DNA from: Hydrurus foetidus | Lineage: Eukaryota | Direction of reading: 5' to 3' | DNA: 45,973 nt | Assembly: GCA_900617105.1 (NCBI GenBank) | Contig: UYFQ01000654.1 | Coordinates: 1 to 45,973, forward strand | Part shown: one piece after another, positions 1-25,750 of the stretch | Layout of the letters: each line of letters starts with the position of its first letter | Numbering within the stretch: the stretch's first letter is position 1 | Notes under the pieces: model-generated | Told to the model about the DNA's origin: nothing | What the model saw: only the letters and a program-made list of their open reading frames with translations | Database searches by the model: none | Position numbers and translations under genes: made by a program

Positions 1-300
1 GCAGTACAATAATGAAGGAAATGCTGTCGAAGTTATTGAGCTGCTCCCATACCGTGATTGAAAACAGAGAGCTTTTTCCACAGCCTCCAACAATTGATCC
101 TAACCTCTGATCACAAAATCCCGCTACGACTAGACTAAGTACATCACTGGCTACATTTCGCACGAGACAGCTCTAGAAGAGATGCCGAAGTGATGTTGCT
201 GTAATTCTATGAGTGGTGAACATCGAAAAGTAGCATATACTTACTTTCGGACAGAAAGGGGTCCCTATGTCACCGAAAATCCGCAAACATAGGGTCGGCG

Positions 301-666
301 TGTCGTACACTAAGGATCAGTTTCCACTGAATGGACAACTATATCCTTCCTGGGTACGCGCTCCTTCTGCAGGTTCAACACGTGCGCTAGCAACTTTCCC
401 GGGCTCAAGGCGAAAGCTCTGCTGGTGTGAGTATTAAGGTAATTAACGATGCAACATCGCTTACATCGTTCATGGAGACAGGCGAAAAGATCGCGCTGTC
501 CCGCACAGTCAAACATGGTGCACTTTCATCTTTTTGATGTTCCTGGGTTAAAGGAACCTGGACCGGTGGAGTAGCGGCCACCACACGGCACACGACGTAC
601 GAAACGTCATCAAATGTACATACGTAATAACTTATACGGTTACTTAGCTCATTAGTTATTCCGACA
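301..666 (-). repeat. Copia-1 3' LTR (366 bp)
   Basis: Matches 6298-6662 by eye except one extra C near position 308 (TGTCGTACACT vs TGTCGTAACT). Confidence 0.96.
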
Positions 667-676
667 CACCCCTATG
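667..676 (-). other. Copia-1 polypurine tract
   Basis: Minus strand CATAGGGGTG directly precedes the 3' LTR TGT; the same 10-mer precedes the Copia-2 3' LTR. Confidence 0.85.
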
Positions 677-4200: not shown

Positions 4201-5052
4201 ATGCTCTCGGTTAGCTAACTTGCTAACGTATAGGAACTCGATGGGCTGCACTACTGATACTAGATATGGTACTTGGTTGACAAACATTATATCTACATAC
4301 ATAATCTGTTCTGTCTTGTACTCTATACCTATCAGTGGTAGCTTCTCTTCTAACTTGGCCTGGTGACTGGTGGTCTTCCCCTTAAGGGATCCCACGTCCG
4401 GTCCCCATATATCAATGGCTCTATGTACGTCTCGCGCAGTCACTTTGCTATTAGTCAAATTCCCTTGGGATATCAACTTAATAGTCTGTGCTGCGCTAGC
4501 GTATCCTAGTCTACGCTGATAGTCTCTAGCTAACGACGCGTCTCTGACTTCTCTTACTGTATACTTCTTCTTATTCTGCTCTACTGTCGTAACTAACATT
4601 GGCATGCATTCTGTTACCATAGTGTCAAGATTACATTGGTATATATTCATAGTCTCATCTCGTGAGAATCTATAAAAATATTTTCCACTGACGTCTTGCA
4701 CTATGTAACAATCATAGTCATGTAAGTACTTAACATCAGTACAGTCACGTACAGCATTACCAAAAGACAATATATTACCAGCACAGTCAGGGCTATAATA
4801 CACGTTGCCGAACGCCGACACCCCACGTTTCTTGATTATCAGCGGTTTTCCTTTCGGATTCACCCCGCTAACAATCATAGGTGTGGGTGCGTGTTCGACA
4901 TTATACAGCAGGGATGAGTCGTTGAAAACCGACTCACCAGCACATGTGTCAAGCAGAATGTGTCTACTTCTAATCATGTTATATATATTGCATGTATTGG
5001 CACTAAAAACAATATGATCACATGTTTCAATTCCGCTAGTGGAATCAGCCAA
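1294..5052 (-). CDS. pol: Copia-1 Pol (protease, integrase, reverse transcriptase, RNase H); true start uncertain
   Basis: Protease ILLDTCAG; integrase D (YVDIMF), D (RVDGEG), E (VVERKIR); RT KSRLVAGG, KALYG, HVDD; RNase H YIDASF, KSSTEAE, YQDNQS, ADILTKPL. The called start at 5052 is TTG, and the frame is open up to 5160. Confidence 0.95.
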   Translation of the reverse strand: MADSTSGIETCDHIVFSANTCNIYNMIRSRHILLDTCAGESVFNDSSLLYNVEHAPTPMIVSGVNPKGKPLIIKKRGVSAFGNVYYSPDCAGNILSFGNAVRDCTDVKYLHDYDCYIVQDVSGKYFYRFSRDETMNIYQCNLDTMVTECMPMLVTTVEQNKKKYTVREVRDASLARDYQRRLGYASAAQTIKLISQGNLTNSKVTARDVHRAIDIWGPDVGSLKGKTTSHQAKLEEKLPLIGIEYKTEQIMYVDIMFVNQVPYLVSVVQPIEFLYVSKLANREHKSIWNSLKTSLASMVKYRFRVKMIRVDGEGAINTEWFHNKVGLRGIVLDVTGAGEAVAVVERKIRHIKERVRSVVNSLPFSLNEKLEVWLVKYAVSRIVLAPTRNSLNHISPREKLTGRKLDVDKEIKHGFGDYVQVHNDVIDNSTKPRTAGAIALMSSGNLEGSWYYMLLANERIVKRTKATVLPMPDEVILHLNVLASKRKTANVKQPVFENSSHIVFDDDDDVEDDSAYIGDVEYETVDENANADYTDEIIEDNDHNDNETHLESQLDMSDENHPPTLDEYVDDTLYVSDTTYDNDELYYDDTHDDTHVPQPKYDQALIDDIFGISDDEDDFADVTVHTEVFTPPATIIETAYDPPVVNSPVLRRSGRNHQLGKWDKKYVGNLFYNHTHLYKMTVNEGINKLGVIAVDSITSELKQMCDKNVWEGVTYESLTPQQKRTIIPSSMFLKEKYTADGMFEKLKSRLVAGGHLQDRDVYNNGASPTASTSSVFMLTAIAARQKRAVATVDFPGAFLNSDMPLTGDHVVYMRLNKQLTAALIKIDATYNKYMNNNGTCIVKLKKALYGCVESAKLWYDKLSSDLIKFNYTANEYDICVFNRTESDNTQTSLVIHVDDMIITASSESRVDDVIKQIETIYPGLTKHRGKVLNYIGMTFDFSKEGCVKMTMEGFVQDLIEGCKDMPGTANTPARANLFTIPDESDSPLPDNLRERFHSITAKLLYLSKRTRPDILTAVAFLTKRVLRPQRDDYDKLTRTIQYIRGSQHTGITFEVYEPIHVIAYIDASFAIHPDMKSHTGSVITLGKGAIYAKSGTQRLMTKSSTEAELVALSDAANQVLWTRNFLECQGHPQPPALVYQDNQSTIQLIRNGRSNSERTRHVDIRYFFLHDRISTGDVDIVYLPTTDMIADILTKPLQGELFKKLRKELLNTSPPTLTYADGCKTEDRTDSAPTPVRTKFNPRFPYPTSKKN

Positions 5053-5169
5053 ACATGGAGGATCGGTGTGTATGTGGGGGTGTGTGTGTAAATGTAAGTG
5101 CGGGTGTATGTACAGGTGTAGATATGGATGAGTGTACGGGTGAGGAATAATGTATCTTACTTAGTTTAC
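5036..5169 (-). other. Predicted 134-nt GT-AG intron joining Copia-1 gag and pol in frame
   Basis: Donor CG|GTAAAC at 5169 overlaps the gag stop; acceptor CTGATTCCACTAG|C ends at 5036; the junction CG+C reads ...GNR-GIETCD... in the pol frame. Confidence 0.5.
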
Positions 5170-6260
5170 CGATTTCCCACTGGGTGCTGATGGCTTTCCG
5201 CTGTACACTCGTATGAGTAGTGCCCAAGTTCGACGCATTTATTACAGTTGTTGGGACCTGTACCGTACGACGTACGCCCACCCTTCCCTCTGCCCCCGTT
5301 ACCGTTAGCGTTTCCTTTCTCTGTCCCAGCTGGTTTCTCACCGCCAGCCGTTTTCGTAGCGAAAACATTGGTCTGGTTGGGTGGTATCGCTGCTGTTGAC
5401 TTCTTCGGGGTGACCTTGGCCATCTCGAGGTACGCGTCCTCCAGAGTGTCTGGCCAGTCTTTGAGCCTGTGCTCGTAGTACTCCACGTAATGACGGTATC
5501 CGGCATTTAATCCGTTCATAAATTTCATCCCAGCGAGTACTTCGTTGTGGGCGGTCATGGCCTCGTTGAACTCGGGCATGACTCCTAACGCCCGCATCGT
5601 GTCCTCGTACCCATTTTTCAATGCTTTAAAGCGTTGATAGTAGTACTTTAACATATCATTCTGCTCCATTTTGACTGTCTCATACGCCATTCGGACTCTC
5701 AGCAGGTTCTGATCTACTCCCAGCCTCGGATCCGAAAGGTGAGTCAATATGATGGCTCTCAACTGTAGCAGCGGATCCTCTGCAGTCATCGCTGCAAGTC
5801 CGGTTTCAGCTTCTCGAATTGTCGCTTTCGACGCTTCGCTAATTTGACCGAGCATTAGTCCGAAGACTTGCTTCCGGTCCTCTCTCAGAGTAAGGACGTT
5901 TCTGTCGTATAGCTCCAATGCTCGCTTCCATTTTGTAGATACCATAAAGTTCGCATCGGCTGCTATGTCCGCTGGAGCGACATATTGCGGGTAATCACCC
6001 GGTATGCCCTCGTTGCCGAATATCTCAGAGATATCGGACTTGTAGTTCGCGCGCGTATATTCGCGGAACTTCCTCATCCATGTGCTTACGCTACCATGGT
6101 TCATCTCTCTTCCAAGATCCAGGAATGCGCCAATCGCGGCTACCGTTCCTGTTCTTGGTGGAGGCTTCGCACCGCGGCCAGCATTCCCTCTGCCACCGTT
6201 GGCAGGGTTTGCTCGACCGCCTGCGGTATTGTGTTCTCGGCCTCGGCCTCTGCCTTTCAT
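5166..6260 (-). CDS. gag: Copia-1 Gag (364 aa)
   Basis: RG-rich N-terminus, capsid-like core (MEQNDMLKYYYQRF), C-terminal zinc knuckle CNKCVELGHYSYEC; ATG lies 37 nt after the 5' LTR. Confidence 0.92.
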   Translation of the reverse strand: MKGRGRGREHNTAGGRANPANGGRGNAGRGAKPPPRTGTVAAIGAFLDLGREMNHGSVSTWMRKFREYTRANYKSDISEIFGNEGIPGDYPQYVAPADIAADANFMVSTKWKRALELYDRNVLTLREDRKQVFGLMLGQISEASKATIREAETGLAAMTAEDPLLQLRAIILTHLSDPRLGVDQNLLRVRMAYETVKMEQNDMLKYYYQRFKALKNGYEDTMRALGVMPEFNEAMTAHNEVLAGMKFMNGLNAGYRHYVEYYEHRLKDWPDTLEDAYLEMAKVTPKKSTAAIPPNQTNVFATKTAGGEKPAGTEKGNANGNGGRGKGGRTSYGTGPNNCNKCVELGHYSYECTAESHQHPVGNR

Positions 6261-6287: not shown

Positions 6288-6297
6288 TCGTTAATTA
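6288..6297 (-). other. Copia-1 non-tRNA primer-binding site, complementary to its own LTR
   Basis: Minus strand TAATTAACGA abuts the 5' LTR; its complement TCGTTAATTA lies on the same strand at 6445-6436 inside the LTR. Confidence 0.75.
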
Positions 6298-6662
6298 TGT
6301 CGTAACTAAGGATCAGTTTCCACTGAATGGACAACTATATCCTTCCTGGGTACGCGCTCCTTCTGCAGGTTCAACACGTGCGCTAGCAACTTTCCCGGGC
6401 TCAAGGCGAAAGCTCTGCTGGTGTGAGTATTAAGGTAATTAACGATGCAACATCGCTTACATCGTTCATGGAGACAGGCGAAAAGATCGCGCTGTCCCGC
6501 ACAGTCAAACATGGTGCACTTTCATCTTTTTGATGTTCCTGGGTTAAAGGAACCTGGACCGGTGGAGTAGCGGCCACCACACGGCACACGACGTACGAAA
6601 CGTCATCAAATGTACATACGTAATAACTTATACGGTTACTTAGCTCATTAGTTATTCCGACA
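6298..6662 (-). repeat. Copia-1 5' LTR (365 bp)
   Basis: Direct repeat of 301-666 with TG...CA ends, followed by TSD CGGCG. Confidence 0.96.
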
Positions 6663-6920
6663 CGGCGACGGTATTATAAAATACCGATTAAATCCAAGAC
6701 TGCGCCCTGTCAACTCAACTGTCAACAGTTCGACTCCTTGAATAATTGCGATGTACACTGAACGCTACTTCATGTCGAGAGGGCACTTCCAGTTTCGTGA
6801 ACTCTGCGACTGAGATGTCCATCTGTTTTTTTTCAGTCAATCAAGTACCACAGCGGTCGTAAAACTGCCGGATTCGCTGTAACACAATTAGTGACGAAGT
6901 ATTTCTGTTGTTGGATAAGG

Positions 6921-8521
6921 ATGGAACAAAGTCAGCAAACTTCAAGAAAATCACGGAAACCTCCAGGTTACTCCAATGCCTTTAATATTTGGCGCACTCA
7001 CAGCCTCAACAAAGTGACATATTTCACAGGCGATAAATTTCGGCAGCAAAGAATTCAATCATGGCAGCCTGTTATGACTCCTGTCAAACTCGTCGTTGTA
7101 CTCGTAACGATCGGAGTATTATTCATTATCTTGGGAGCTTCGCTGTACAAGATGTCGGAGGACGTAAGCTCTATTTCGCTGTCTGGATGAGAAAACTACG
7201 AAACTCTTTGAAGTAATCATGTGCCACCAACACTCAGAATTCCTTATCTCTTGAATACTGTAGAAGCTAGATCTTCGAGTTGTCTATGATGGAAGTAGCA
7301 AAAACGACGTCCAGTGTCAGATTGGATATGCGAATGAGGGGAGGCAGTGCACGGTCAGTAATTGCAACTGTGCTGATAATAACTCACACGTTAAATCAGA
7401 GCTTCTCTAATCTTCCAGCGGTTCCTATGATGTCAGGTCTCTTTTGTCTTCGACCGTGATGTTACAGGTCCCTTATTGGTATACTACGAGCTTGACAGGT
7501 TCTACCAAAATCATCGAATATACGTCAACAGCTACAGCTCAGCGCAGCTATTAGGGGCGGTGAGACACGTCATTCACTACTGTTCTTTAATGTTTATTCT
7601 TTCATAGTTGAACGTCTAAGAATTTATATCAAGCATTAATGATACATTCTGATCTCTATTATGTTTGTTCGCTAAACTTCACTCACTTGCAGAACATAGG
7701 ATCAAGCGACAAAGCACTATCCCTCGCATGCAACCCCTCCTCAATGAACGAAATGATGAACCTAAACCCTTGCGGACTTATAGCGAAATCCTTTTTCACA
7801 GGTAGGATGCAAACACTGCTGATGAATACCGCAGTTGAAAGCCTTGAGCTGATCTAACAACGTTTCGTGACTTTCCTAAAATTGGTCGACATTATCATTT
7901 CAATAATTAAATCCAGATATAATTACGTTAACTGGGAGTTCCAAAAGTGGTGTTGAAATGAAAGAAAAAAATATCGCTGCTCCTGCCGATATACTAAAAT
8001 TTAATCAAGTGAATGGATTTCGAAGTGAAATCGTGGCCAATGAAGGCGTCTCGTGCTCTGATGTCGGTCTACCTAGTAACTGCAAATACTACCGTGACAG
8101 GGACACTAATGCCTCGTATCTCTTCCACTATCCAAGTGATGAAACAGTACAGTACTTGTATGAGCAGTATCCTAGGCAAATATCCCCCATACTTGGCGTC
8201 ACCGACGAGCACTTTATAGTTTGGATGAGAACCGCTGCACTTCCTAAGTTCAGGAAATTATACGGAAGAATTCATCAAAATTTCGTCAAAGGCGATTTTA
8301 TTAAATTCAATGTTGAGGCCAACTTTGAAGTGCGTAGTTTTAATGGAGACAAAGCCATCATTATCGGAACAGCAGGGGCGTCAGGTGGTAAGAATTCTTC
8401 TTTAGGAATTGCTTTTCTCGTGTGCGGGTGTTTGGGTATTTTTTTCGCTGGAGGTTTTTGGGTGCAGTTTAAATTGAATCCGAGATTTTTAGGAGATCAA
8501 CGTTTGTTGAGATGGGATTAA
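6921..8521 (+). CDS. CDC50: CDC50/LEM3 (ALIS) family P4-ATPase flippase beta subunit; predicted exons 6921-6966, 7030-7163, 7264-7353, 7437-7559, 7693-7801, 7917-8521
   Basis: Manual splicing at GT-AG sites gives a continuous frame with family motifs FRQQRIQSWQP, YYELDRFYQNHRIYV, PCGLIAKSFF, EHFIVWMRTAALPKFRKLYG, GGKN and two TM segments. Intron 1 (63 nt) is in frame and could be retained. Confidence 0.92.
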
Positions 8522-9315
8522 GAGTTAAGAATAGTGCAGTATATTGTACAGCACTGCGCTGGACTGGACTGCATGATTCAGGATACTGAGTTGCTCTCTA
8601 ATCCCTTGGAGCGTGATGACCGGATGGCCCTCGAATCGTTCTTTTTTATTTGCTGCTTCACCTCATTTAATATATTACATCTATCATGCTCAACTTCTTC
8701 TTGCAGCTTCAAGTACATCAATCCGCGTTACTTGTTCTATTTTTACTGTTAAATAATATCAGCAATTCCAAAGTGTAGCGTTCGTAGTATTTCTTCTATC
8801 TTTAATATTTATCTTCGAGGATTGATGAGGATCATGCCAACAAGTTAGAATCATTTTTAAGCAAGTATCGCTCAACAGATGGATTCTGTGAATTATTTTG
8901 TTGATGTAAAGTGTTCTGTACACAACAATGTGTCCATCGACTCCCTTCTGATCCGATTATACACAGAAGAAAGCTGCGGCCAGATTTCCTACATAATATA
9001 CCGTGAAAATAATTTTAGCGGCTCCCGGCTACTGCCAATATTTGCAGTCAGTCATTGTAGAGGAGTTTGAAGGGAAGTACGCGATATGATATGGTATAGC
9101 AGTTTAAAAGCATGTAATGAAGTCATGTTGAAAGAGTATGTGTCGACAAACATAAGTCGTAACACCACTATCACTGCGATCTGCTTCATGAAATGGACAA
9201 ACTAAGAAAAAATCTAGCTTTTCCTTTCGATGACTCCGAGTTGAAGAGATCTTGTGAAATTGATGTCCAACTCTTCTCGATACAGAAGTGTAGCCTCTCA
9301 ACAATGATCGCAGAT

Positions 9316-10389
9316 TCATTGTAGAAGCATATCATTTAATCTTTCGCATATTTCAATCGTTTGAGTTTCATTAGCACCCTTGGCGAAAAATCCATGGTGC
9401 ATGTTATTATACACTACAGTTTCCACAGGAACTTTGGAGTCTTCTAATCGTCTCCCGAATTTCAAACCTTCGTCAAGAAGTATGTCATGTTTTGCCAGAA
9501 CAATAAGAGTCCTAGGAAAGTTCTGTAGAATATCATCTGGTGTGCGCATGGGACACGCCCTATAGTCGGCAGCATCTACTGCTTGATCCGATAAATACAT
9601 TGACCAAAAATATTGCATCTGCCTCAAAGTTAGCAGAGCGAATGAGGTGCTGTATCGAAAGTGGCTGTCGAGATATACGCCATGATCGAGGCAAGGGTAT
9701 AGAATAAATAAGCCTTTAACTTCCGCTTTGTCGGCAGGATTTGTGAATGCTGGATCCTGATTTAGTGCGGTGACAGAAGCTGCAATCGTCCCCCCAGCAC
9801 TCTCACCGGAGATATATATCCTCATAGGATCCCCGCCGTACTCCCTTATCGAGAGTCTTGTCCACTGCAATACGTCAGCAGCATCATTTACTGCAGCAGG
9901 AAAAGGATTCTCAGGTGCTAGTCTGTAATCAACATTTAAAACTATGAAATCCGTGTACTGAACAATCTTGCTGCACAATGTGTCCTCGTTCGTGAAATTT
10001 CCTATAACGAAGCCGCCTCCATGATACCATATTAGAACAGGCCGCAAAGTTAAGGTGTCAGATTCAATTCTTCCTCCGATGGTGGATTCGTTGGTTACTC
10101 GACGGTACAGTCTCAGCGAAATAGCCATGTTTGCACTGCTGTTCATAGATATACTGAAGAGAGATACATCCTTCGACAGAGTAGAAGGAATACTGTTGAT
10201 CATTTTGCGAACTTTTGCTAGACCAGCAACTCTATTGTTGAGAGCTGGATAAATGTCTCTTACGAATAAACCCATAATCGTCGAGATTACCAGTGAAGTC
10301 GTATCCACCTCACTTCTATAACATGCGAGTAGAAGGCTCGCGATGCCGACAGCACCGGAGAGCAGTAGAATACTGGATGTCAAATACAT
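9316..10389 (-). CDS. HSL-family alpha/beta hydrolase (esterase/lipase), intronless, hydrophobic N-terminus
   Basis: HGGG oxyanion motif, VDYRLAPE, GESAG nucleophile elbow, HDILLDE acid and HGF catalytic His. Confidence 0.93.
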   Translation of the reverse strand: MYLTSSILLLSGAVGIASLLLACYRSEVDTTSLVISTIMGLFVRDIYPALNNRVAGLAKVRKMINSIPSTLSKDVSLFSISMNSSANMAISLRLYRRVTNESTIGGRIESDTLTLRPVLIWYHGGGFVIGNFTNEDTLCSKIVQYTDFIVLNVDYRLAPENPFPAAVNDAADVLQWTRLSIREYGGDPMRIYISGESAGGTIAASVTALNQDPAFTNPADKAEVKGLFILYPCLDHGVYLDSHFRYSTSFALLTLRQMQYFWSMYLSDQAVDAADYRACPMRTPDDILQNFPRTLIVLAKHDILLDEGLKFGRRLEDSKVPVETVVYNNMHHGFFAKGANETQTIEICERLNDMLLQ

Positions 10390-10568
10390 TGCTCCAGCCG
10401 TTCAAGAATGGAGTAGCTTCGGGCAGCTGACTGATCGAGCTTTACCCCGGCAGCGAAGTTGACACTTATGGTAGAAGTGAAGGCATTATTGCATGATCTG
10501 CCACAGTACACTCATCGCTCGCACAAGCTCCGAGCTCGAGCTCACAGCAAGGGGGTTATTGTGCCGGT

Positions 10569-10907
10569 TGTTGGAGATATCTGAGTTTATGGCACGAACA
10601 CAATCAGTGTACTTATGCTTTCGTACGGACGTACGGATTATTATGTGTGTGTGTGTGTGTGTGCGTACATGCGTGAAGACGATGGATGGATCCGTGCATC
10701 GTCACTGAATACTTCAACAGTAGTGTATGAGTGAATGTTGTTGTTGCGTTGAAAGGGACTCGGGGACTTCAGCAGGGATGAAGCACAGTCAATTAACAAG
10801 TGATTACTGACTACACCAAGCTTATTTCACGAGTCTTGACCAAGCGATCCACGACACACGTACTGCGAGAGGCTGTACGCGGCGTCGAAACTCGAGATCC
10901 GTCAACA
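10569..10907 (+). repeat. Copia-2 5' LTR (339 bp)
   Basis: Differs from the 3' LTR by three TG units in a microsatellite and one C/A substitution (10773 vs 16048). Confidence 0.96.
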
Positions 10908-10917
10908 TAATTGACTG
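10908..10917 (+). other. Copia-2 non-tRNA primer-binding site, complementary to its own LTR
   Basis: TAATTGACTG abuts the 5' LTR; its reverse complement CAGTCAATTA is at 10786-10795 in the LTR. Confidence 0.75.
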
Positions 10918-10931
10918 GCTAGGCATTTTCC

Positions 10932-13900
10932 ATGCCTCCCAAACGCGCTGTAGAAGCCCTCAAGAGTGCAGAAGAGTGCATTCTCCAACACGGCAAACAC
11001 GGCAACGTCATCAAGTGGAGAGAACATATGCAGACGATCGTCACAGAACTGTACGGAATCGTGGGGATGTTCTTCACCACTGGCGTGAGATACGAACTTC
11101 CGAAGTTATCATACGAGGATTATCCCTCAGATTCTTCTTCGGAAAGTTCAGATGAGTCCGACGATGAGGAACCGGGCGTCAACGGTCCGCTAGACCAGGT
11201 GCGAACTGCAGCAGCAGCCGCCGCTAAAGCCGCACGCGCTGCGGTGCGACTGGCGAAATCAGAAAGGCAACGCAAAGCCACACAGAAATCTCGTGCGAAA
11301 TTCAGAGAGAATGAGTACATTCAGAGGAGGAAAGATTTGAAGACGCAACACGAGAACGAACGTACGGTCTTCCCCATGATGTGGAAGCGTATGTCGCTCA
11401 TATCCCAGAGCAGAGTAAGGGAGGAAGAGGAGTACAGGACGGCGTATCTCACCCTAGACTGCGTCCTGTTATGGACACTGATCGAGCGAACCCACCTCAC
11501 GCACATGTACGGTGCAGACGAGGCACTGGTAGAGTACAATCAGCACCAACAGGAGATGAAATACGCGTCTATGAGACAAGGTGAGAGAGAGCACTTAGTA
11601 ACCTTCAAGAATCGCTTTGACGAACAGGTGACGGCGAACCTCGCTGTGGGGATCGCAGCCGTATCGGAATCGAAGCGGGCACTCGACTTCCTCGGCAAAC
11701 TCGATCCCCGCAGGTTCGGGGTCATGATGGGCGATATGAAGCATGACGCACTAAGGCGTAAACCGGATGCGTTCCCAAATACACTCGCCTCAGCCTTCCA
11801 CGTATCGAACCAATGGAACGAGGGAAGAGACCCCATACCAGCAGCCGCACCAGCACCCATCGGTGCGAACGCAGCGTACGTTACAGAAGGAGCACACGTT
11901 ACCGCCTCCAGTGACCCGGAGAAGAAAGCGGGGAAAGCAGGAGGGACCGGTAAGAAATCCTTAGCAGATGTCGAATGCTTCAAATGCGAATTGAAGGGAC
12001 ACTACGCAAGGAACTGTCCGCAACGGAAACCGTCAGTTGAGAAAGTCCACGTCACGACGACAGAGTCGGACTGTGAGTACGAGGGTGAGGTTAGTGAGTG
12101 GGGTATAGCACTGGTCGCAGCACAGGAGGTATGCTGCTTCACAAAGTACGATGTACTACTGGACAACGAAGCCTCGCTGAACATCTTCAGCAACAAGGAT
12201 TTACTCACCAACGTGCGAGTGACCGACAAGAAAGTGCGAGTAAGTGGGATCGAGCAGAGAGGAGGCGTTTCAGTCGATCAAGAAGGAAGCTTCGGGGAGT
12301 TCGGAACTGTTTACTACAGTGGAGCAGCGTCGGCCAACATCTTGTCATTTGCGTCACAAGTTGATTCGGGAGCTGCTATAAGATACGACTACCTTGATGA
12401 CTGCTTTACCCTGCGACCTAAGGGGAGCGAGAACGTGCATCGATTTGGAAGGAAGCATGTCGCAGGCAGCGAGGGTAGATTCTACTCTTGCGATTGGAGA
12501 GAATTCATGAACGATCGAGCCCTGGTGGCAACAGTTACTGAAAACCTCAGAGCATTCACGAAGCGTGAGGTGGAGCAGGCTAGGAGAGCCAGGGAGATGC
12601 TTGCTAGGATGGGGTTCCCGACAGTGGAGCAGGCGATGTCGATCATCAACAGTGGGAGCAACTTCGAGGTTAGCGCGAGAGATTTCCAGATCGCTGAAGC
12701 GATATGGGGGAAGGATATAGCTTCCCTGAAAGGGAAGACTACCAAGCGAGCGACTGCTGTCGCAGACATCACCGTGAGCACAAAAATACTGCAAAGAGAT
12801 CAGGTCCTATCGATCGACATTATGTATTTAGATAAATTAGCTATTCTAGTCGGGGTGGCTACTCCACTAGGTCTAACTATTGCATATAGTCTCAATACAG
12901 CAGATCTGAAGAAGCCAGCGAGGACAGCAGCTCAGGTGAAGCTTGGAATCAGCCATTTCCTTGGCGTCCTCGCCTCGCAAAACTTTAGAGCCTCCGTGAT
13001 CATGAGCGACGGAGAGAGCGCAGTGGTCAGCCTCGTCGACGAGTTAGGGAAACTTGGGGTGGAAGTGGACATCAGCGGCGCTGGCGGGCACGTGGCTAGG
13101 ATAGAAAGAAAAATCAGGCTTGTTAAGGAACGAGTACGATCTCATGTAGCGTACCATCTACCGTTCACATTGTCGACCGTGGGTATCGCCATGTGTGTAC
13201 TGTACTGTATATCCAGGCTGAACTACGAACCGGCCGGACCACGAGAATGGGGCCCCAGCCCCCGAGAGGCGTTTATCGGTAGGAAGCCTGATGGTAAGAG
13301 GGATTTTCGCTGTTCATTCGGAGACTACGCACAGTGTACCGTTACTAACACCGATTCAGGAATGGAGAGTCGAACCGAGGACTGTGTGGTGATGCTCCCC
13401 CTTGGTAATCGTACCGGGTCCGTCAGAATGCTATCGCTCAAAACAGGGCGCCTGGTCAACCGTGATCAGTTCCGAATACTCCCGATGCCGGAGTCGGTCA
13501 TCAAGCGACTGAACGATCTCGCACTGGCTGACGGTAGAGTCAAGGGTAAGGGGGAATTGTACACGAAACCGGCAACCTATGCCCAGGACGCAGGCGCAGT
13601 GAGTGACCTCCCGGACACCATAGAACCCAAAGTGAACGATGGAGTCGACCCTGCAGTCCTGCCACTTGATGACGTGAACGGGCCAGATCAGATGGACAAT
13701 GGTGAAGGCGTGCAGCACGGACATGGGGGTGAGTATGAGCAGAGCGACGGTGACGCAGTTAACGATATGGATCCACACAGTGGGGATGTAGACCAGCCTG
13801 GGGTTGCGGAGGATGGGGAGCATGAGCACGTGGACAGTGAGATGGACAGCCTAGTTGAGAACATGAGCCGCATGCGAGCGGGGCCACGCGACCACGAAGA

Positions 13901-15770
13901 GACATACGCAAGCGAGATCGACGCGAGCGGAGTGCCGGTGGACTATACAGCAGGGGACACGGGTGTGGAAGAGCAGCGGAATGCGAGGGATGCACTGGAT
14001 CACGCAGCGCGTCTACTGGATGTGCCACGGAACCCGATGGGGCACGGCGTCACCAGACACGAGTTGATGGACTTCTTCAGGATGAGAAGTGGCTCGGCAC
14101 TGCTTACACGGAACTACGATGGGAACGGTGCAGACTGGGGAGATCATGTGCTCAACATATCGGTCAATGAGGCGCTGCGAACGAGAGGCGATGCAGCAGT
14201 GGGTGTGATAGAGAAAGAGCTCAGGCAGATGATCGACAAGAAGGTTTGGGAGCCAGTCGACGTGAAGGGGCTGTCATGGGAGGAGAAAAAGAGGATCATC
14301 AGGTCTAGTATGTTTCTGAAGGAGAAGTTCCTTGCAAGCGGGGAGTTTGAGAAGTTGAAGGCAAGACTAGTCGCGGGAGGGGATCAACAGGATCGCGACC
14401 TGTACGACGACCTGTCCGCACCGACAGTAGCGACGAGCTCGGTCTTCACGTTGCTGAGCATAGCCGCACACGAGGGGAGGAGGATCGCGGTGATTGACAT
14501 CAGCGGGGCTTTTCTGAACGCAGACATGACCACGGGACTCTCAGTGCACATGCGACTGGATCGTAACATGTCAGGCATCATGGTGAGACTGTCGCCCCCA
14601 TATGCGCAATTCGTCGACCACAAGGGGTGTATCGTGGTGCGCCTTGACAAGGCACTGTACGGGTGCGTGGAGTCAGCCGCGCTGTGGTACGAGAACCTGA
14701 AAGTCGGACTGTCCGAAATGGGGTACGTACCGAACACACACGACACGTGTGTGTTCAACAAGCACAACGAGCACGGAGTACAATGCACTATCGCCGTGCA
14801 CGTGGATGACTTGATGGTGACGAGTATCGATGGGTCTATGATCGAGGCGGTTGCAACCGGTCTGATAAAAAGGTACGGCGACATTACCAGGAAGGATGGC
14901 CCCATAGTGAACTACCTAGGGATGGTTTTCGACCTTTCATTCACAGGTGTGGCACGCGTGTCGATGACGGGATACGTGGAAGACATGCTCAAAGAAAGCG
15001 GGACGAAGGGGGGTGCGAGATCACCAGCGACAGAGGGACTCTTCGACGTGAGGGAGAGTGCGGCGATGGCGAGCGAGGAAGAGCGCGTCCGATTCCACCG
15101 TCAAGTAGCGAAGGGACTGTACCTTGCTAAGCGTGCAAGACCAGACTGCCTAACCGCCGTGGCATTCCTTGCGACCCGGGTGACACGGTGCACAGAGGAT
15201 GACCTGGCGAAGCTAGAGCGACTGCTGAGGTACATCAATGCCACCAAGGACAGAGGGGTGGTGTTCGCACCTGGGGTGAAGGGGATAGAAGTGAGCGTGC
15301 TGATCGACGCGGCATACGGGGTGCACCCGGACGGGAGATCGCATACGGGGAGCTGTGTGGTGGTGGGGAGTAGGGGTGCGGTGCACTCAAAGTCAGCGAA
15401 GCAGCAGATTGTGACGAAGTCTAGTACGGAGGCGGAGCTGGTCGCATTGTCTGATTCTACTAACCAAGCCTTACACTTGAGACACTTTATCATAGGGCAA
15501 GGGTATGCGTGTGGACCCGTGACAGTGTACCAGGACAATATGTCGTGTATGTCACTCATAGAGAGAGGACGGTCAGCCGCAGAGAGGACAAGACACATCG
15601 CCATCAAGTACTTCTGGCTGAAGGAGCGTGTGGACCAGGGCGAGGCGAGAGTGCGACACCTGGGGACCAAGGACATGTACGCCAATCTGCTGACCAAGCC
15701 GTTGCAGGGAGCACAGTTCAAGTCGGAGAGACAGGGGCTTACCGGATGGGACCAAGAGATAGTAGTTTAG
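10932..15770 (+). CDS. gag-pol: Copia-2 Gag-Pol polyprotein (1612 aa)
   Basis: Zinc knuckle CFKCELKGHYARNC; protease VLLDNEAS; integrase SIDIMY / MSDGES / RIERKIR; RT KARLVAGG, KALYG, HVDD; RNase H LIDAAY, KSSTEAE, YQDNMS, ANLLTKPL. Confidence 0.97.
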   Translation: MPPKRAVEALKSAEECILQHGKHGNVIKWREHMQTIVTELYGIVGMFFTTGVRYELPKLSYEDYPSDSSSESSDESDDEEPGVNGPLDQVRTAAAAAAKAARAAVRLAKSERQRKATQKSRAKFRENEYIQRRKDLKTQHENERTVFPMMWKRMSLISQSRVREEEEYRTAYLTLDCVLLWTLIERTHLTHMYGADEALVEYNQHQQEMKYASMRQGEREHLVTFKNRFDEQVTANLAVGIAAVSESKRALDFLGKLDPRRFGVMMGDMKHDALRRKPDAFPNTLASAFHVSNQWNEGRDPIPAAAPAPIGANAAYVTEGAHVTASSDPEKKAGKAGGTGKKSLADVECFKCELKGHYARNCPQRKPSVEKVHVTTTESDCEYEGEVSEWGIALVAAQEVCCFTKYDVLLDNEASLNIFSNKDLLTNVRVTDKKVRVSGIEQRGGVSVDQEGSFGEFGTVYYSGAASANILSFASQVDSGAAIRYDYLDDCFTLRPKGSENVHRFGRKHVAGSEGRFYSCDWREFMNDRALVATVTENLRAFTKREVEQARRAREMLARMGFPTVEQAMSIINSGSNFEVSARDFQIAEAIWGKDIASLKGKTTKRATAVADITVSTKILQRDQVLSIDIMYLDKLAILVGVATPLGLTIAYSLNTADLKKPARTAAQVKLGISHFLGVLASQNFRASVIMSDGESAVVSLVDELGKLGVEVDISGAGGHVARIERKIRLVKERVRSHVAYHLPFTLSTVGIAMCVLYCISRLNYEPAGPREWGPSPREAFIGRKPDGKRDFRCSFGDYAQCTVTNTDSGMESRTEDCVVMLPLGNRTGSVRMLSLKTGRLVNRDQFRILPMPESVIKRLNDLALADGRVKGKGELYTKPATYAQDAGAVSDLPDTIEPKVNDGVDPAVLPLDDVNGPDQMDNGEGVQHGHGGEYEQSDGDAVNDMDPHSGDVDQPGVAEDGEHEHVDSEMDSLVENMSRMRAGPRDHEETYASEIDASGVPVDYTAGDTGVEEQRNARDALDHAARLLDVPRNPMGHGVTRHELMDFFRMRSGSALLTRNYDGNGADWGDHVLNISVNEALRTRGDAAVGVIEKELRQMIDKKVWEPVDVKGLSWEEKKRIIRSSMFLKEKFLASGEFEKLKARLVAGGDQQDRDLYDDLSAPTVATSSVFTLLSIAAHEGRRIAVIDISGAFLNADMTTGLSVHMRLDRNMSGIMVRLSPPYAQFVDHKGCIVVRLDKALYGCVESAALWYENLKVGLSEMGYVPNTHDTCVFNKHNEHGVQCTIAVHVDDLMVTSIDGSMIEAVATGLIKRYGDITRKDGPIVNYLGMVFDLSFTGVARVSMTGYVEDMLKESGTKGGARSPATEGLFDVRESAAMASEEERVRFHRQVAKGLYLAKRARPDCLTAVAFLATRVTRCTEDDLAKLERLLRYINATKDRGVVFAPGVKGIEVSVLIDAAYGVHPDGRSHTGSCVVVGSRGAVHSKSAKQQIVTKSSTEAELVALSDSTNQALHLRHFIIGQGYACGPVTVYQDNMSCMSLIERGRSAAERTRHIAIKYFWLKERVDQGEARVRHLGTKDMYANLLTKPLQGAQFKSERQGLTGWDQEIVV

Positions 15771-15827
15771 ACAGCGTTTAATTAAAGACATATGCGTGAT
15801 GCGTGAATAGAGTTGATTGTGATGTGG

Positions 15828-15837
15828 CATAGGGGTG
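15828..15837 (+). other. Copia-2 polypurine tract
   Basis: CATAGGGGTG directly precedes the 3' LTR. Confidence 0.85.
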
Positions 15838-16182
15838 TGTTGGAGATATCTGAGTTTATGGCACGAACACAATCAGTGTACTTATGCTTTCGTACGGACG
15901 TACGGATTATTATGTGTGTGTGTGTGTGTGTGTGTGTGCGTACATGCGTGAAGACGATGGATGGATCCGTGCATCGTCACTGAATACTTCAACAGTAGTG
16001 TATGAGTGAATGTTGTTGTTGCGTTGAAAGGGACTCGGGGACTTCAGAAGGGATGAAGCACAGTCAATTAACAAGTGATTACTGACTACACCAAGCTTAT
16101 TTCACGAGTCTTGACCAAGCGATCCACGACACACGTACTGCGAGAGGCTGTACGCGGCGTCGAAACTCGAGATCCGTCAACA
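15838..16182 (+). repeat. Copia-2 3' LTR (345 bp)
   Basis: Direct repeat of 10569-10907, followed by TSD CCGGT. Confidence 0.96.
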
Positions 16183-16205
16183 CCGGTCAAAACTCAGAAC
16201 TAAAC

Positions 16206-17727
16206 CAAGGGGGTATAAAAGGAGAGGGGGCAGTACCAACCCAAAGTCCCACTCAAACTTTTCTCACCATAGTCTCACCCAACTCCCAACTACCCGAACA
16301 TTCTCACCATCATAAGAGCTGATATACAGACCAACTTTGGCAACATGCTACAAAGCAGCCAAGGACTGCGCGTCCTCGTCCATGAGCGTCCAGCGTTCGC
16401 CAAATCCCAGCGGTCCTTTTGATAGACGAATTTTGTCTGCATCTTCAGTTCGCGATTTTGCTCGTCCCCACTTCGGTAAGCTTCTCTCGACTAAGTTAGA
16501 AATTGAATGTCGATCGTCACCTTGGCAGACTTCGGGAATAGCTCAATACGTGCACAACAAAACGATTCCCAAAATCTGCCAAGGCACAGTTCAATACTCA
16601 CGAATTTATCGATTTCGACAAATTTGCCGTCTACTTGTGCCTAATTTTCTCTGCATTGCCGCAACAAATTCAACAGGCCAACGGATTTTTGATTTGAAAA
16701 CAATAAGATAATATCAAGAGGCACAGTAGTGAACCTCCGCCCGATTGCAGTCAAACTGTCTTCCGGGCATCGTTTGATAACTGAACATGAGAAACAAATT
16801 CATCCGTAATATCATAATCGAAATCCACCGCCGTCCTTCGAACCTACCAAGTCTATGAGCACTGGACTGAGCATCATGTCACTATTCTAATTGACCCAAT
16901 TTTTTTGAAGAATCTGATCACTCGAGGATTTGGCGCGGGCTCGGTGGCGCAGCTATAAAAGAAGCCTAATTTCGATAGATAGACTTTATTTAATTACGAT
17001 GCGTAGCATGCGCTGTAATTAAAGAGCATTGAGTTTTCATATCATTCGAATCGCTGGCTTGTGAATTTCATCGGAGAAGTGTAGTACGGGCCTGAAAAAA
17101 GATGATAAGCTGGGTATTCTTGCTGTAAATTTATTCGTGATTAAACAGGTTGAAGAAAAAAATCCGGCGCTCCCCAGCAAAATCCAAGAATTGCTGTCGA
17201 CTCCCACTGATAATTCAGAACTTGTCATGCCTGTCAGTTCTTTGGGAGACGATTTCTAGTCTAAATAGTGAGATCGTCGTTTTTAGTGAAAAATATGGTG
17301 CATATGAGATTGCAATTTTTCGACTCGTGGAGCTCGAGAAGGTAAATTTTCGACGCTCACTTAACCTACCAGCACAGAATGCTTGATGCAGGAGTGTCTG
17401 CCATCGGTTTGTCTTGAAGGATCTTCGATGACTGCGATCAACCGGCGAAATTTTTGGGAATTTATCAATTTTTTGCACAAAAATTAGAGGGTTGGCTCCG
17501 GCAGGAAAATCCCAGCAAATCCAAACTTCTCACTCTTGGAAGTACCTTCCTTTTGGGAGCGCTTGGGGTTCTGCCTGCTGGAATCCCTTCGACTGTTCTG
17601 TACTTCGTACTGTGCCACATGTGAGGGAGGGTAGTTCAGATTTTGTATTTTTGGGTGAGACTCTGGTGAGAAAAGCTTGAGTGGGACTTTGGGTTGGTAC
17701 TGCCCCCTCTCCTTTTATACCCCCTTG
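16206..17727. mobile_element. Non-autonomous DNA transposon, 1522 bp, ~77-bp TIRs, 7-bp TSD (P-element-like)
   Basis: TIR CAAGGGGGTATAAAAGGAGAGGGGGCAGTACCAACCC... at 16206-16282 versus its inverse at 17651-17727 (two mismatches); TSD ACTAAAC at 16199-16205 and 17728-17734; no recognisable transposase ORF. Confidence 0.9.
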
Positions 17728-17759
17728 ACTAAACGGTGCCTCAAACTTTTTTTGCGGTA

Positions 17760-17966
17760 TTGTGCCGGTCATATCTATACGACGACTTTTTTGGGGGAAT
17801 CTTTTTTTTGGCGGAACAATCCACGGATTTTCGATTTTTTTGACGGTTTTTGTTTCAAAACTGTAAAAATAATCTTCTTTTTGCCCCAAAATCCGGTTTT
17901 GGGGACTGTTCCGCAAAAAAAAACGTTTTTATTTGCGGCTCCGTCGTATAGTTATGACCGGCACAA
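17760..17966. mobile_element. MITE (207 bp) with TTGTGCCGGTCA TIRs and TA flanks
   Basis: TTGTGCCGGTCATATCTATACGACG versus CGTCGTATAGTTATGACCGGCACAA (one mismatch), TA on both sides. A related older left end starts at 10559 and is split by Copia-2. Confidence 0.8.
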
Positions 17967-18083
17967 TATATTCGTGTTTTTGACCGCAGAATCAAAGTAT
18001 CAGTTATTTTGACCTCTGTCAAAAACACGAAAAACCTCCCCCCAAATTAAATTCTCCCGTTTAGTTATATGTTATATATATTA

Positions 18084-18739: not shown

Positions 18740-19074
18740 TATACCCCCTTGCTGACAGATTCGATTACTGTATACAAACTGACACTGACTTTCCTCTCAG
18801 GTACGTACGCGAGTACAGTTCAGTACGTATATAGTTCGAGAGTTACGCAGTTTGAGTTTGTGTTGTCTTTCTTTACACTCCTCTCTCTCCTCATCCCTGC
18901 ACACTGCAGACGGTCATGCCGTTTGAAACAACACGACGAGAGGGCATAATTCGCCTGGCGCAGTAGATTTCCTGCTGCGAGATTGGCTGTCGTTGCTAAA
19001 GAACAATAATCACGACTCAAAAATATCTGAAAACAGTTTACTATGACCGCAGCGTCATCATTTCTACTTGGGTA

Positions 19075-22000
19075 ATGAATGAACGAAGCATGAACGCATC
19101 GATAGATGTCATCAAGATAATAGCTTTCGAGGCTGAACCCGTCGTAGACAAATTCCACTCATACACTCTCATATTCAGTGTCGATAAAAGCAACATCAGA
19201 TGGAAAGTTACACACCAATTCTCGCGATTCAAAATTCTGAATCTCCTCATTCGGAAACTGGCCCCAAAACTGATTTACAGCAAATTTCCGAAGGATGGCA
19301 CTACGACACTTCTGGGTTTGCGGCTTTCGAAGAAGGCGGTCGATAATAGACGGCTAATGTTGGAAATATGGATCCGTGAAGTCGTAGCAAATTTTGAGAT
19401 ATTACCAGAAGAAATCGCACAAAGCCTCAACGATTTTGTGAAGGCACCGAAAAGGATCACAACCCAACTTGAAAGAGCATTCTCAAGCTCGGCCTTGATT
19501 GATTGTAACGTTATCAGTGCTGTATCACAATCTTTTAGTGGCAGAAAGCATTCAGCAGATGCCCACCACTTACCCTCTAACATGGGCGTAAATGGGAAGG
19601 GAACACAGAAGGATTCAAGGTCATCATCTCTTACCAAATCGAAGAGCAGATCTAGGGTTGAAACCCTTGCGCGATTTATCAACAGTTGCTTCGTAAAAAT
19701 TGTTTTGAGGATATCTAGGAGTTTTGAATCTATAAATGAGTGGGATGGAACATCAACTATATGTCTCTCTCGGACAGATCGTATGATACATCTGAAAAAC
19801 GGCTCTCTGAAATTCACCTTCATGCATGAGATGCATCTGCATTTGATCAACTATATCCAATTCTATCTCGTGGCGACATTTCTGAATCAGACTGTTGGGT
19901 TTTTACTATATTGGTTGTTCGGTCTATCCCTCCCAACGTCTGGTGTTGTATTCGTGACATCATTCATCATGTACATGAGCCTGCTTCATACGGATTACAA
20001 GCGAGTTGATGAGCAGCCAACAGCGCACTATTCTTCATGTGCGAAAGTACAGGATTCACTACGAAAGTTTTTGAATTCTCCCTCTTTAGAATACACAGAC
20101 AAGATTTACACATTCCCTTCATTTCTAGCATATCAGAACAGTGCGTCGGTGAGCAGCAAATCAGACTCATCTAGTGACACATTTTCTTCATCAGATGATC
20201 ATTTGGGTGTGCCCAGTTCGGATGATTCGCCCTTTAGAAACAGCCCTGAAGATTACCGACCATTCGCACAATCCACCTTAAAGGACAATACAGAGAAAAG
20301 GGAGAAGTTGGAATTGCACGAATCTTTAGTTCCAGGGTCTACATTTGACAGTGTGGAGTTCAATGATTTGTGTCCAGAGGCGAGAGCGATGTTTTCCGAT
20401 CGCTCAGAGACGCATTCTATGAAGGTGTATTTTGTATTCTGTATTTCTGTCTATCATCTGTTCAATGAAAATATCTATGAATGCGTTCTATTCGAATGTT
20501 AAGTAAGATGCTCGAAAGTCATCTCCTCAACAACATGGCTTGACACGATATTTCTCGTCAAAAATGAGGACGTATGTCTATTCCCTTAGGGAAATATTAA
20601 GCACGGAATGACCGTCAAACTAATTATGTTGTATCACTTTGACAGCCTTCTTTACTTCCATGAATTTAAAATGTCGAACTAACCACGTACACTTGCTCTC
20701 ATTTCATCCCTCAATTTACACAGGTGAGAGGTGAATCGTATTGCGAAGATCACAAGAAAGTCAATCCCGGTCACGCTATGTCAAGACTTCTTCTGTTGGA
20801 ACTGTACGAAGTGGAGGCAAAGGTGACCGAAAATACTCAGTGATTATTGCCGCTATTTGTATCGATGAGGGAGATGGAGCACTTCTGGAGTGTTCGCTAC
20901 CGTATACTGCACCTAACACACATCACCCACACCCGCACACACGCGCATGCCCACCTCTTATCTGATGGTTGTTACTACATTATTATATCCATTCATGCTC
21001 ATTCCTTCTGCACATTAAACTTAGACTATTATCCCCATATATCCCTCTTTCTTATGCGCTTTAAGGACGGTGATCGCCACGACCACATCGTTTCTCGAGG
21101 CGCTGCTAGAAGACGTCTACAAGCCCTCAGAACGCTGCCTGAGAAACTCTTCTTCGTGTGTGTTAATTTTCAGATTCCTGGTGACCCACCGGTGCGTACG
21201 CACGTTCTAGCGGAATGATCCTTTCAGTGCGTTCTGATCAGAATATTCCTATTAAATGCACTCACATCCACTCAAAGCTCCCGTTCAATCGCAACTAACT
21301 GCCCTATCTTCCTCCTCACCAGGTGAGCATCGTGTCGTACTTCGGTCTACCCATGGATTTGATGGACAGGTATCCTGGACCAGCCACTGCAAAATTCCTG
21401 AAAACATTCGAGAGATTCATCGATATTCCAAGGACAGAGAAAGAGAGACTAGAGGCATGGGGAGTGTTCACGAGTGAGCCTGCAGAGGCGCTTGAAGTTA
21501 GTATCGGAAACACCTCATCAACTGAGGGTGCAAAGGAGCCATCCACTGTGACGAAGAACAGTCCCGCTGCGGCTGCATCTCCACCACCATCTCCAACAAA
21601 TGCTAGACTGCCCCCTCTTGCTCCTCTGGTTCAGCCCCAATTGATTCCTCCCACCCCCACTAAGAAGAGCAGACTAAGTGCCCTTCTGTCCCGCTCTGGT
21701 ACCCGTCATACTACCAGCAACGCCATCACACCGAACACTCGCAGCAACTCTCATCCTGTAACTGCTTCCCCTAGACACTCCCCTGCGAATGTTTTGCGCA
21801 GCGGTTCTACAGAATCCAGGAGTGAGGCTAGGCGCAGAGGACGTAGTTCTTCATTCAATGACGCTGCCATGATAGCAGCGCACGAAGGAGTAAAGGCCAC
21901 GACTGCAGCATCTCCTAAGCACTCAGGATACCTCAGGCCATCCAGTGGTAGTGGTAGACTGACAGGTCGATCCGGTGACGCCTCCTTCTCTCTTGCAAAG

Positions 22001-22779
22001 CAGAGAAGTGGCAGTCCTATGGACTCCTTGAGCTTTGATGTGGCGGATGCGGACATGGAGACGGACAGCAAATCCCCTCTAAGTGACGGTGTTGCTTTTG
22101 AGAATTCCTACCTTGCATCTGAACTACGACTGGACGACACAAAGACCTCCGTCCCTCACACACACGCTCAACCTGTTGTTGCTGCCGCTGCGGTTGCCAG
22201 CACTGGATGGAGGGTACCGAGTGACATCACATGGCCGACTGCTCAAGACAAGGGTGCCCTACCCCCCACTGATTTCCGCAATGAACGCTTCAAGCTCATT
22301 CCCTCCATCACAATCGGTCCCTGGGTTGTCAAGGTTGCAGTTGGTGCGACACCTGCACTGTTGGGACGGAAGGTGGTGCAACGGTACTTTAGAGGGGAGG
22401 ACTATCTAGAGATTGACGTGCACGTGGGTTCGAGTGTTATAGCGTCACAGGTATCAACAATTATGACTTCAAAAAGAACCATCATGTATCGGAACAGCAA
22501 CATTTGGATCGTTTTTTCTTCACCATTTTTTGGACCCTCTTTAGTTTTTTTGTGCGCTTTATCATCACTACACTTCTTTATTTTGTCATGTGTTTTTTTT
22601 AATCGTGCACTCTGCTTTTCATACAGGTCGTTGGACTTTGTCGAGGGTTCGCAAAGAATATCGTGAATGACGTAGGCATTGTAATCCAAGGAGAGCACGA
22701 AGGAGAACTGCCAGAAAAGCTCCTAGCTGTCGGTGCTCTAAACCGTATAAACGTAAATATCAGGCAAAAGCTGGACTGA
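19075..22779 (+). CDS. PX-like domain + TM segment + EDR2 C-terminal (DUF1336) protein; predicted exons 19075-20424, 20724-20822, 21066-21191, 21323-22450, 22627-22779
   Basis: N-terminal PX-like pattern (YTLIF...WKVTHQFSRFKILN...FPK...RRLMLEIWI); DUF1336-type motifs MKVRGESYCEDHKK, VNFQIPG, RNERFKLIP, YFRGEDYLEIDV, QGEHEGELPEKLL; all joins are GT-AG and in frame. Confidence 0.85.
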
Positions 22780-23034: not shown

Positions 23035-23409
23035 TGACGTCAGTTGATGACGTCATTCATAAACCTGACCGATGACGTCATATTGTGCTTTGACTTTTAA
23101 TCTGGAGCACACACCCCCAGCTCTATGAAATTTATACGCACCCCCACCCAGATATAACTTTTTTGGTGAATTTTAGGCGGAAACCCCCCATTTTTTAGGG
23201 AGGGACCTTGGATCCTGGAATTCTAGATGCAAAAAAATGGGGGGTTTCCGCCTAAAATTCACCAAAAAAGTTATATCTGGGTGGGGGTGCGTATAAATTT
23301 CATGAAGCTGGGGTGTGTGCTCCAGATTAAAAGTCAAAGCACAATACATCAAGAGATCTCAGTCATTCCTGAAGTGATGACGTCAGTCATAAGTTAGGCC
23401 CTGACGTCA
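23035..23409. promoter_or_regulatory. Cluster of five TGACGTCA (CRE/bZIP-type) palindromes
   Basis: TGACGTCA at 23035, 23048, 23073, 23378 and 23402; function not shown. Confidence 0.4.
23083..23344. mobile_element. Fold-back MITE (262 bp), ~114-bp TIRs, TA flanks
   Basis: TTGTGCTTTGACTTTTAATCTGGAGCACAC... is mirrored almost perfectly around a ~35-bp spacer; TA at 23081-23082 and 23345-23346. Confidence 0.9.
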
Positions 23410-25590: not shown

Positions 25591-25750
25591 CTCTCCTGGG
25601 TCTCAGGACGCGACCTCGACAAATTTGACGAATCCTTTTCAAATCAGCTCTTTCTACTGCTCTCTGACGTCTTCAGAGAGTTTCTCTGAGAGAGATTTAT
25701 TGACAGACTTTCGTGACTTTTGACGTATATACCTAGGGATGGTGGCTAGC

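Follow-up and report, generated by a model that had tools for sequence, protein, structure and literature searches.

Complementarity between the primer-binding site and the long terminal repeat in two Copia retrotransposons of Hydrurus foetidus and their relatives points to probable self-priming

The window analysed in this study, i.e. the whole contig UYFQ01000654.1 of Hydrurus foetidus (assembly GCA_900617105.1; 45,973 nucleotides), is eukaryotic DNA with two complete Copia-order retrotransposons back to back and host genes between them, here named Copia-1 (6662-301, minus strand) and Copia-2 (10569-16182, plus strand). In both elements, the first 10 nt after the 5' long terminal repeat (LTR), where the primer-binding site (PBS) is located, are the exact complement of nucleotides 218-227 of the same LTR, a segment referred to below as the arm. 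This pairing is real and lineage-wide. Both elements probably self-prime in the manner of Tf1 from Schizosaccharomyces pombe: reverse transcription would be primed by the first approximately 11 bases of the element's own RNA, and not by a tRNA.

The helix between arm and PBS comprises exactly 10 bp in both elements and lies at offset 0 from the terminal CA of the LTR. Positions 6, 9 and 10 distinguish the two primer sites, and each arm carries the matching change; the preliminary description of this DNA, which had reported that all three differing positions preserve pairing, is accurate on this point and in the coordinates of its four 10-mers. Neither PBS finds a match in the LTR of the other element, and the two LTRs, described there as unrelated, share no similarity in blastn at an E-value of 1e-3. 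When each LTR was shuffled with its dinucleotides preserved, the PBS complement was present in 8 and 6 of 20,000 shuffles for the two elements, in keeping with the earlier estimate of about 3e-4 per element. The arm offset of 217 nt is indeed equal in both elements, as had been pointed out, but this is a coincidence: across the 35 pairing families introduced below the arm position ranges from 55 to 351, and therefore the offset carries no weight and a conserved spacing is ruled out. Within the 3' LTR of Copia-2, the arm even lies 6 nt further in than in the 5' LTR because of a TG microsatellite.

The covariation was analysed in a broader set of relatives. Metagenome contigs provided 79 loci, taken from the best 80 of 557 relatives in 600 stretches, a further 24 came from contigs assigned to prokaryote genomes, and three more were added, so that the total is at least 106 loci; viral contigs and a Gag-only scan of the metagenome contigs contained no relatives. 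Many of the relatives are collapsed elements in which the end of pol, the polypurine tract (PPT), LTR, PBS and the start of gag are read in one run. An RNase H end is present in 98 of 106 loci; 41 were dropped for having no gag start within 1,300 nt and 10 according to the PPT rule. The 47 loci kept represent 44 families (three pairs were merged), which together with the window elements make 46. LTR ends were proposed without using complementarity: the best match to PPT plus TG was taken as the LTR start, every CA that fits the inverted start with no more than one mismatch as a candidate end, and the best perfect match at offset 0 was recorded. Cross-family pairings and shuffles, serving as nulls, were run by the identical procedure.

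A PBS that is complementary to the own 5' LTR and covaries across families is observed in 35 of the 46 families at a threshold of at least 9 bp, versus 14 of 2,070 cross-family pairings and 45 of 4,600 shuffles. For helices of at least 10 bp the corresponding numbers are 26/46, 6/2,070 and 12/4,600, and for at least 14 bp 15/46, 0/2,070 and 0/4,600. Helix length varies between 9 and 25 bp among the 35 pairing families, all of which differ in the first nine PBS bases. Covariation of this kind had been proposed beforehand as a check on self-priming, and the relatives display it. Equally in line with the preliminary description, which had noted the lack of a TGG-type or half-tRNA-Met site in the window elements, TGG does not occur within six bases downstream of the called LTR end in any of the 46 families, and no site of either type lies within 3 edits in the 35 pairing families, the comparison being with these two site types. 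A quick, midpoint-rooted tree of the reverse transcriptase (RT) and RNase H (RH) regions with 53 rows, built without named references and leaving out L038 (low coverage) as well as the near-duplicates L012, L075, L095 and L106, shows the pairing trait spread throughout; Copia-1 and Copia-2 belong to different subclades.

The edges of the arm provide the second line of evidence. In 30 of 35 families, the 5' edge of the arm lies at most 1 nt from a CA dinucleotide, compared with a background of 15% and with 19 of 165 chance matches. Its A is the first paired base in 21 families, lies just before the arm in 8, including both window elements, and just after its first base in one; beyond the two main CA positions, no other offset between -12 and +12 accounts for more than three families. 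Around this CA, T occurs at -2 in 20/30 and C or T at +2 in 25/30, so that the arrangement resembles the initiator-like motif TCAHW described for diatoms in the passages of PMC4686930 concerned and the oomycete initiator YCAYTYY given in those of PMC3599244. We regard this as strong, but indirect, evidence that the arm may represent the front end of the transcript, which would start from the CA at the arm's edge; the predicted starts are 6446 and 10785, and the predicted primer measures 11 nt in both window elements and 9-21 nt across families. At the other end, the helix overlaps the LTR by 0 nt in 19/35 and by 1 nt in 16/35 families, and never by more, which is as expected if the 3' end of the primer abuts U5. 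When RNAs are folded from the predicted start, the helix is present in both the minimum free energy structure and the centroid of the two window RNAs, and its mean pair probability exceeds 0.5 in 33 of 35 families.

Taken in order, priming would proceed as follows. Transcription would begin at the A of the initiator-like CA; in the window elements, this A immediately precedes the arm. The RNA 5' end is predicted by folding to pair with the PBS and to close a loop of 110-140 nt. By analogy with Tf1, we infer that a cut at the arm's 3' end, for which the element's own RNase H is the probable enzyme, would then free a 3'-OH opposite the first PBS base. RT would extend this primer into U5, and the cDNA would finish flush with the LTR, given that the helix stops where the LTR does. 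Finally, plus-strand synthesis would rebuild the PBS by copying the primer, which could explain why arm and PBS change jointly.

Several observations weigh against this model or limit the confidence in it. In both window elements the predicted +1 A is opposite a G, so that 10 of 11 primer bases pair. The z-scores for folding of the whole RNAs are weak (-1.18 and -1.94), and folding favours the helix because the RNAs were begun at the predicted +1. Transcript start and primer RNA are deduced, the run data consisting of assembled contigs. In a simple ungapped test, neither of the Tf1-type side helices is better than in cross-family pairs: the U5-side helix occurs in 11/35 families versus 223/1,190 pairs (p=0.056), the leader-side helix in 2/35 versus 205/1,190 (p=0.91). 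In the relatives, whose contigs are collapsed, the LTR ends are set by the PPT and the terminal inverted repeat and not by comparing two LTR copies, and p-values overstate independence because the families are related. Moreover, 11 of 46 families remain below the fixed rule. A looser look, with G-U pairs allowed and no null, finds helices of 11-18 bp in six of these eleven (L029, L047, L068, L069, L074, L089), weaker ones in L022 and, by eye, in L004, and no clear helix in L032, L038 and L045; under the same conditions, helices also appear in 7 of the 10 loci excluded by the PPT rule. In L012, a locus close to L011, the arm is changed and only 4 bp are left; the LTRs of the two are near-identical and L011 pairs over 17 bp. 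L012 is possibly a dead or non-autonomous copy.

LTR elements commonly show long-range pairing in the region of the PBS. The helix could be a structural switch for translation, packaging or dimerisation while something else primes, and fungal GalEa elements of the Copia order do possess a hairpin in place of a PBS, without LTR complement (PMC5445492). We consider this improbable: a switch would leave unexplained why the helix starts at PBS base 1, stops at the LTR end and carries an initiator-like CA, and the 35 families offer none of the alternative primer sites searched for. Somewhat less improbable, albeit still unlikely, is that the primer is the element's own RNA but acts in trans and is not released by cutting the capped 5' end: an abortive or processed short transcript of the same promoter, or the other packaged RNA, would anneal to the PBS. 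Cis and trans action cannot be told apart from sequence alone; the side helices required by Tf1 were not detected in these families, and the self-complementary AATT at PBS positions 2-5 (19/35 families) could favour intermolecular pairing. Against this, folding favours the cis helix in 33/35 families, and cis cleavage has an experimental precedent in Tf1 (PMC7175516).

The two remaining explanations are weaker still. Priming by a host tRNA fragment, with the LTR match incidental or a relic, would have parallels in Copia elements with internal tRNA sites (half tRNA-Ile in Bianca, PMC6317226; tRNA-Lys in FunCo1, PMC5445492), and the PBS region of Copia-1 and that of L053 are at most 2 edits from the FunCo1 tRNA-Lys site, which is a further point against self-priming. 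However, 25 of 35 families, including Copia-2, are more than 3 edits from this site, and the 35 distinct PBS words each fit their own LTR and almost never that of another family; we regard a tRNA fragment as very unlikely. Chance inverted repeats in AT-rich LTRs can be practically dismissed: the words in the window are short (10 nt) and rich in A and T, but the shuffle and cross-family nulls given above refute such an origin for the 35 of 46 families, and relatives match over up to 25 bp. Self-priming from the RNA 5' end remains our favoured interpretation.

What is not new is the prediction of self-priming within Ty1/copia as such. The preliminary description had regarded the window elements as a candidate self-priming lineage and knew of no described case in Ty1/Copia. 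The first part is well supported, by comparison between families, through the covariation, the initiator-like CA and the helix stop at the LTR end; the novelty is not, since self-priming was already proposed for the families Houba and Osr-1 (Capy 2005, as cited in PMC6317226) and predicted for the plant TAR lineage via a 10-bp criterion (PMC6317226), so that the present elements are not the first Ty1/copia case. Like TAR, they are Ty1/copia elements in which at least 10 bp of LTR complement the post-LTR sequence; the TAR case is a prediction, and the relevant passages of PMC6317226 mention no experiment. Unlike TAR from land plants, the window elements come from a stramenopile-like host; host and Atlas neighbours point away from the plant lineage.

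In Tf1, the PBS is bound by bases 1-11 of the RNA, which RNase H cleaves off from base 12 onwards (PMC7175516), and a three-helix 'pretzel' is required (PMC10085805). The window elements resemble Tf1/Tf2 in that the PBS complements an LTR segment corresponding to the RNA 5' end (shown in Tf1, predicted here), in a primer of about 11 nt and, as far as TGG-type and half-tRNA-Met sites are concerned, in the lack of a tRNA site (PMC7175516). In contrast to Tf1 and the sushi elements, which are Ty3/gypsy chromoviruses, their integrase precedes RT and they match PF07727; membership of that group is rejected, as the Ty3/gypsy order RT-RH-integrase is not found in them. Differences from Tf1 also concern the pairing length, which varies by family, and the pretzel side helices discussed above.

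GalEa, a Branch 1 Copia group of fungi with a Conserved Hairpin Site (CHS), lacks a tRNA PBS, as the window elements seem to, and its post-LTR palindrome CTAATTAGT also has an AATT core, from which word 10 of 35 families are within 2 edits; yet the GalEa site pairs 12-41 nt downstream and has no LTR complement (PMC5445492). A GalEa CHS type (CTGATCAGT or CTAATTAGT, with downstream pairing) was considered and rejected for the window elements, whose primer sites lie 3 edits away from CHSeq1 and find their complement in the LTR. The diatom CoDi elements (Ty1/copia Branch 1) are similar in size (near 5-6 kb), TG...CA LTRs and Copia order (PMC2806351); the main texts of PMC2806351 and PMC2774666 contain no description of their primer site. 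The nearest Atlas clusters, at 0.97-0.98, are eukaryotic, diatoms being commonest among the 3-4 members with a record. These neighbours point to diatoms, and the label CoDi-like is tentative. In the open literature, with subscription journals and Repbase outside the scope, no description of self-priming in Copia elements of diatoms or other stramenopiles was found. Repbase Reports entries on LTR elements of Thalassiosira pseudonana reportedly mention self-priming.

Both elements are young Copia-order retrotransposons. They possess paired direct LTRs with TG...CA ends, a target-site duplication (TSD) and a PPT (Table 1), and PF07727 (Copia-type RT) is above the cut-off in both. Motifs which we take to be those of protease (PR) and integrase (IN) precede RT in both translations, giving the order PR-IN-RT-RH; Pfam detected no integrase match in the element proteins. 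A single indel distinguishes the LTRs of Copia-1, and three TG units plus one substitution those of Copia-2; the Pol proteins of the two elements are 34% identical. In the contigs of one run, the summed depth is about 70,000 over the Copia-1 LTRs versus 128 over host genes, which fits a multi-copy family, although such a depth is no copy number. At the gag/pol junction of Copia-1 (5020-5200, minus), gag ends just before pol in another frame, and the region holds two GT donor-like sites and a CA-rich low-complexity stretch. The frame change and the donor-like sites suggest that pol may be produced by splicing or frameshift.

Table 1. Positions of the structural features of Copia-1 and Copia-2 in the window
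Feature	Position	Strand	Basis
Copia-1 TSD, downstream copy (CGCCG on minus)	296..300	-	direct repeat
Copia-1 3' LTR, 366 nt, TG...CA	301..666	-	
Copia-1 arm, second copy within 3' LTR	449-440	-	
Copia-1 PPT, 10 letters identical to Copia-2 PPT	667..676	-	
Copia-1 pol frame (protease-integrase-RT-RNase H), 1,288 open codons	1294..5160	-	PF07727
Copia-1 gag open reading frame (ORF), weak zinc-knuckle match, frame differs from pol	5166..6260	-	
Copia-1 PBS TAATTAACGA, adjoins 5' LTR	6288..6297	-	
Copia-1 5' LTR, 365 nt	6298..6662	-	
Copia-1 LTR arm TCGTTAATTA, exact PBS complement, predicted self-primer	6436..6445	-	
Copia-1 initiator-like CA; predicted +1 is the A at 6446	6446..6447	-	motifs in the passages of PMC4686930, PMC3599244 concerned
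Copia-1 TSD, upstream copy	6663..6667	-	
Copia-2 TSD CCGGT, upstream copy	10564..10568	+	
Copia-2 5' LTR, 339 nt	10569..10907	+	
Copia-2 initiator-like CA; predicted +1 is the A at 10785	10784..10785	+	
Copia-2 LTR arm CAGTCAATTA, exact PBS complement, predicted self-primer	10786..10795	+	
Copia-2 PBS TAATTGACTG, adjoins 5' LTR	10908..10917	+	
Copia-2 single gag-pol ORF, 1,612 aa, Gag-PR-IN-RT-RH	10932..15770	+	
Copia-2 PPT	15828..15837	+	
Copia-2 3' LTR, 345 nt	15838..16182	+	
Copia-2 arm, second copy within 3' LTR	16061-16070	+	
Copia-2 TSD, downstream copy	16183..16187	+	

Sequence variation around the arm was examined for Copia-2 in public data (20 runs, all as contigs, two of them RNA with small shares). 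In the contigs of four runs covering 10755-10945, all 40 listed substitutions fall within 10803-10888 and none in 10755-10802 or the PBS, in counts taken from contigs, in which rare variants are lost; the summed depth is highest over the arm. Loose ends at 10791, inside the arm, in contigs of the runs X1, X3 and X5 suggest Copia-2 subfamilies with one extra base in the arm, and a PBS change matching this base is not among the 12 of 34 indels listed. One RNA-library contig spans the arm and continues with more than 255 unlike letters; it is uninformative on the transcript start.

Further observations concern the relatives. The AATT at PBS positions 2-5 stands out from the remaining PBS, which varies freely (per position in the 35 families: A at 2 in 33, A at 3 in 31, T at 4 in 30), and it may be a cut-site mark or a dimer contact. 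Between the arm and the LTR end, no shared polyadenylation word is apparent, as no 6-mer occurs in more than 12 of 35 families. The 24 prokaryote-filed loci are probably eukaryotic contaminants; prokaryote metagenome-assembled genomes with Copia contigs are represented by L081, L084, L086-L088, L091, L095, L097 and others, and eight of the contigs sit in a single such genome.

The host genes of the window are, in order, a CDC50 exon (7907-8521), an alpha/beta hydrolase (9316-10401), frames with PX and EDR2_C domains (19000-22666) and a Serinc-like protein (24016-25602). The top named match of the CDC50 exon is an Ochromonas protein (55%), and named diatoms reach 38-44%; judged by this one gene, the host is probably a stramenopile of chrysophyte-like type. 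The insertion site of Copia-2 (10557-10568 plus 16183-16185) matches the first 14 letters of an inverted repeat at 17758-17968 that is similar to miniature inverted-repeat transposable elements and has the ends TATTGTG...CACAATA; a longer hairpin element at 23081-23346 shares these ends. Directly after Copia-2 (approximately 16200-17727) follows a 1.5-kb element with terminal inverted repeats of 77 nt (97%), an apparent 7-bp direct repeat at each side and no ORF of at least 150 aa, which is probably a non-autonomous DNA transposon. From 26336 to the window end at 45973 extends a satellite whose 139-bp unit is repeated 141 times (99% matches), possibly centromeric or subtelomeric. ARAGORN predicted no tRNA genes in the window, and Rfam had no match over positions 1-27000.

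At the level of the lineage, a broader scenario seems to us as probable as its opposite: a Copia clade that is both large and old and lives in stramenopiles (diatoms as well as chrysophyte-like algae) would have abandoned tRNA priming wholesale, independently of Tf1/sushi and plant TAR, with a minimal self-primer consisting of one 9-25-bp helix from the initiator to the conserved AATT junction and without the side helices of Tf1. If these helices are missing, RNase H in this clade would pick its cut site by another rule. According to the portions of the literature considered, self-priming has been shown experimentally in a Ty3/gypsy element and only predicted so far for Ty1/copia; with its dozens of covarying families, and with intact young copies such as Copia-1 and Copia-2, the present clade lends itself to a direct test. 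It also bears on whether LTR elements ancestrally self-prime or tRNA-prime, a question raised in PMC3601003, where hairpin priming is suggested as possibly ancestral in the passage concerned. Furthermore, self-priming suggests why the PBS of algal Copia elements would escape tRNA-based annotation, and the match between PBS and LTR predicts the transcript start of each family to within 1-2 bases.

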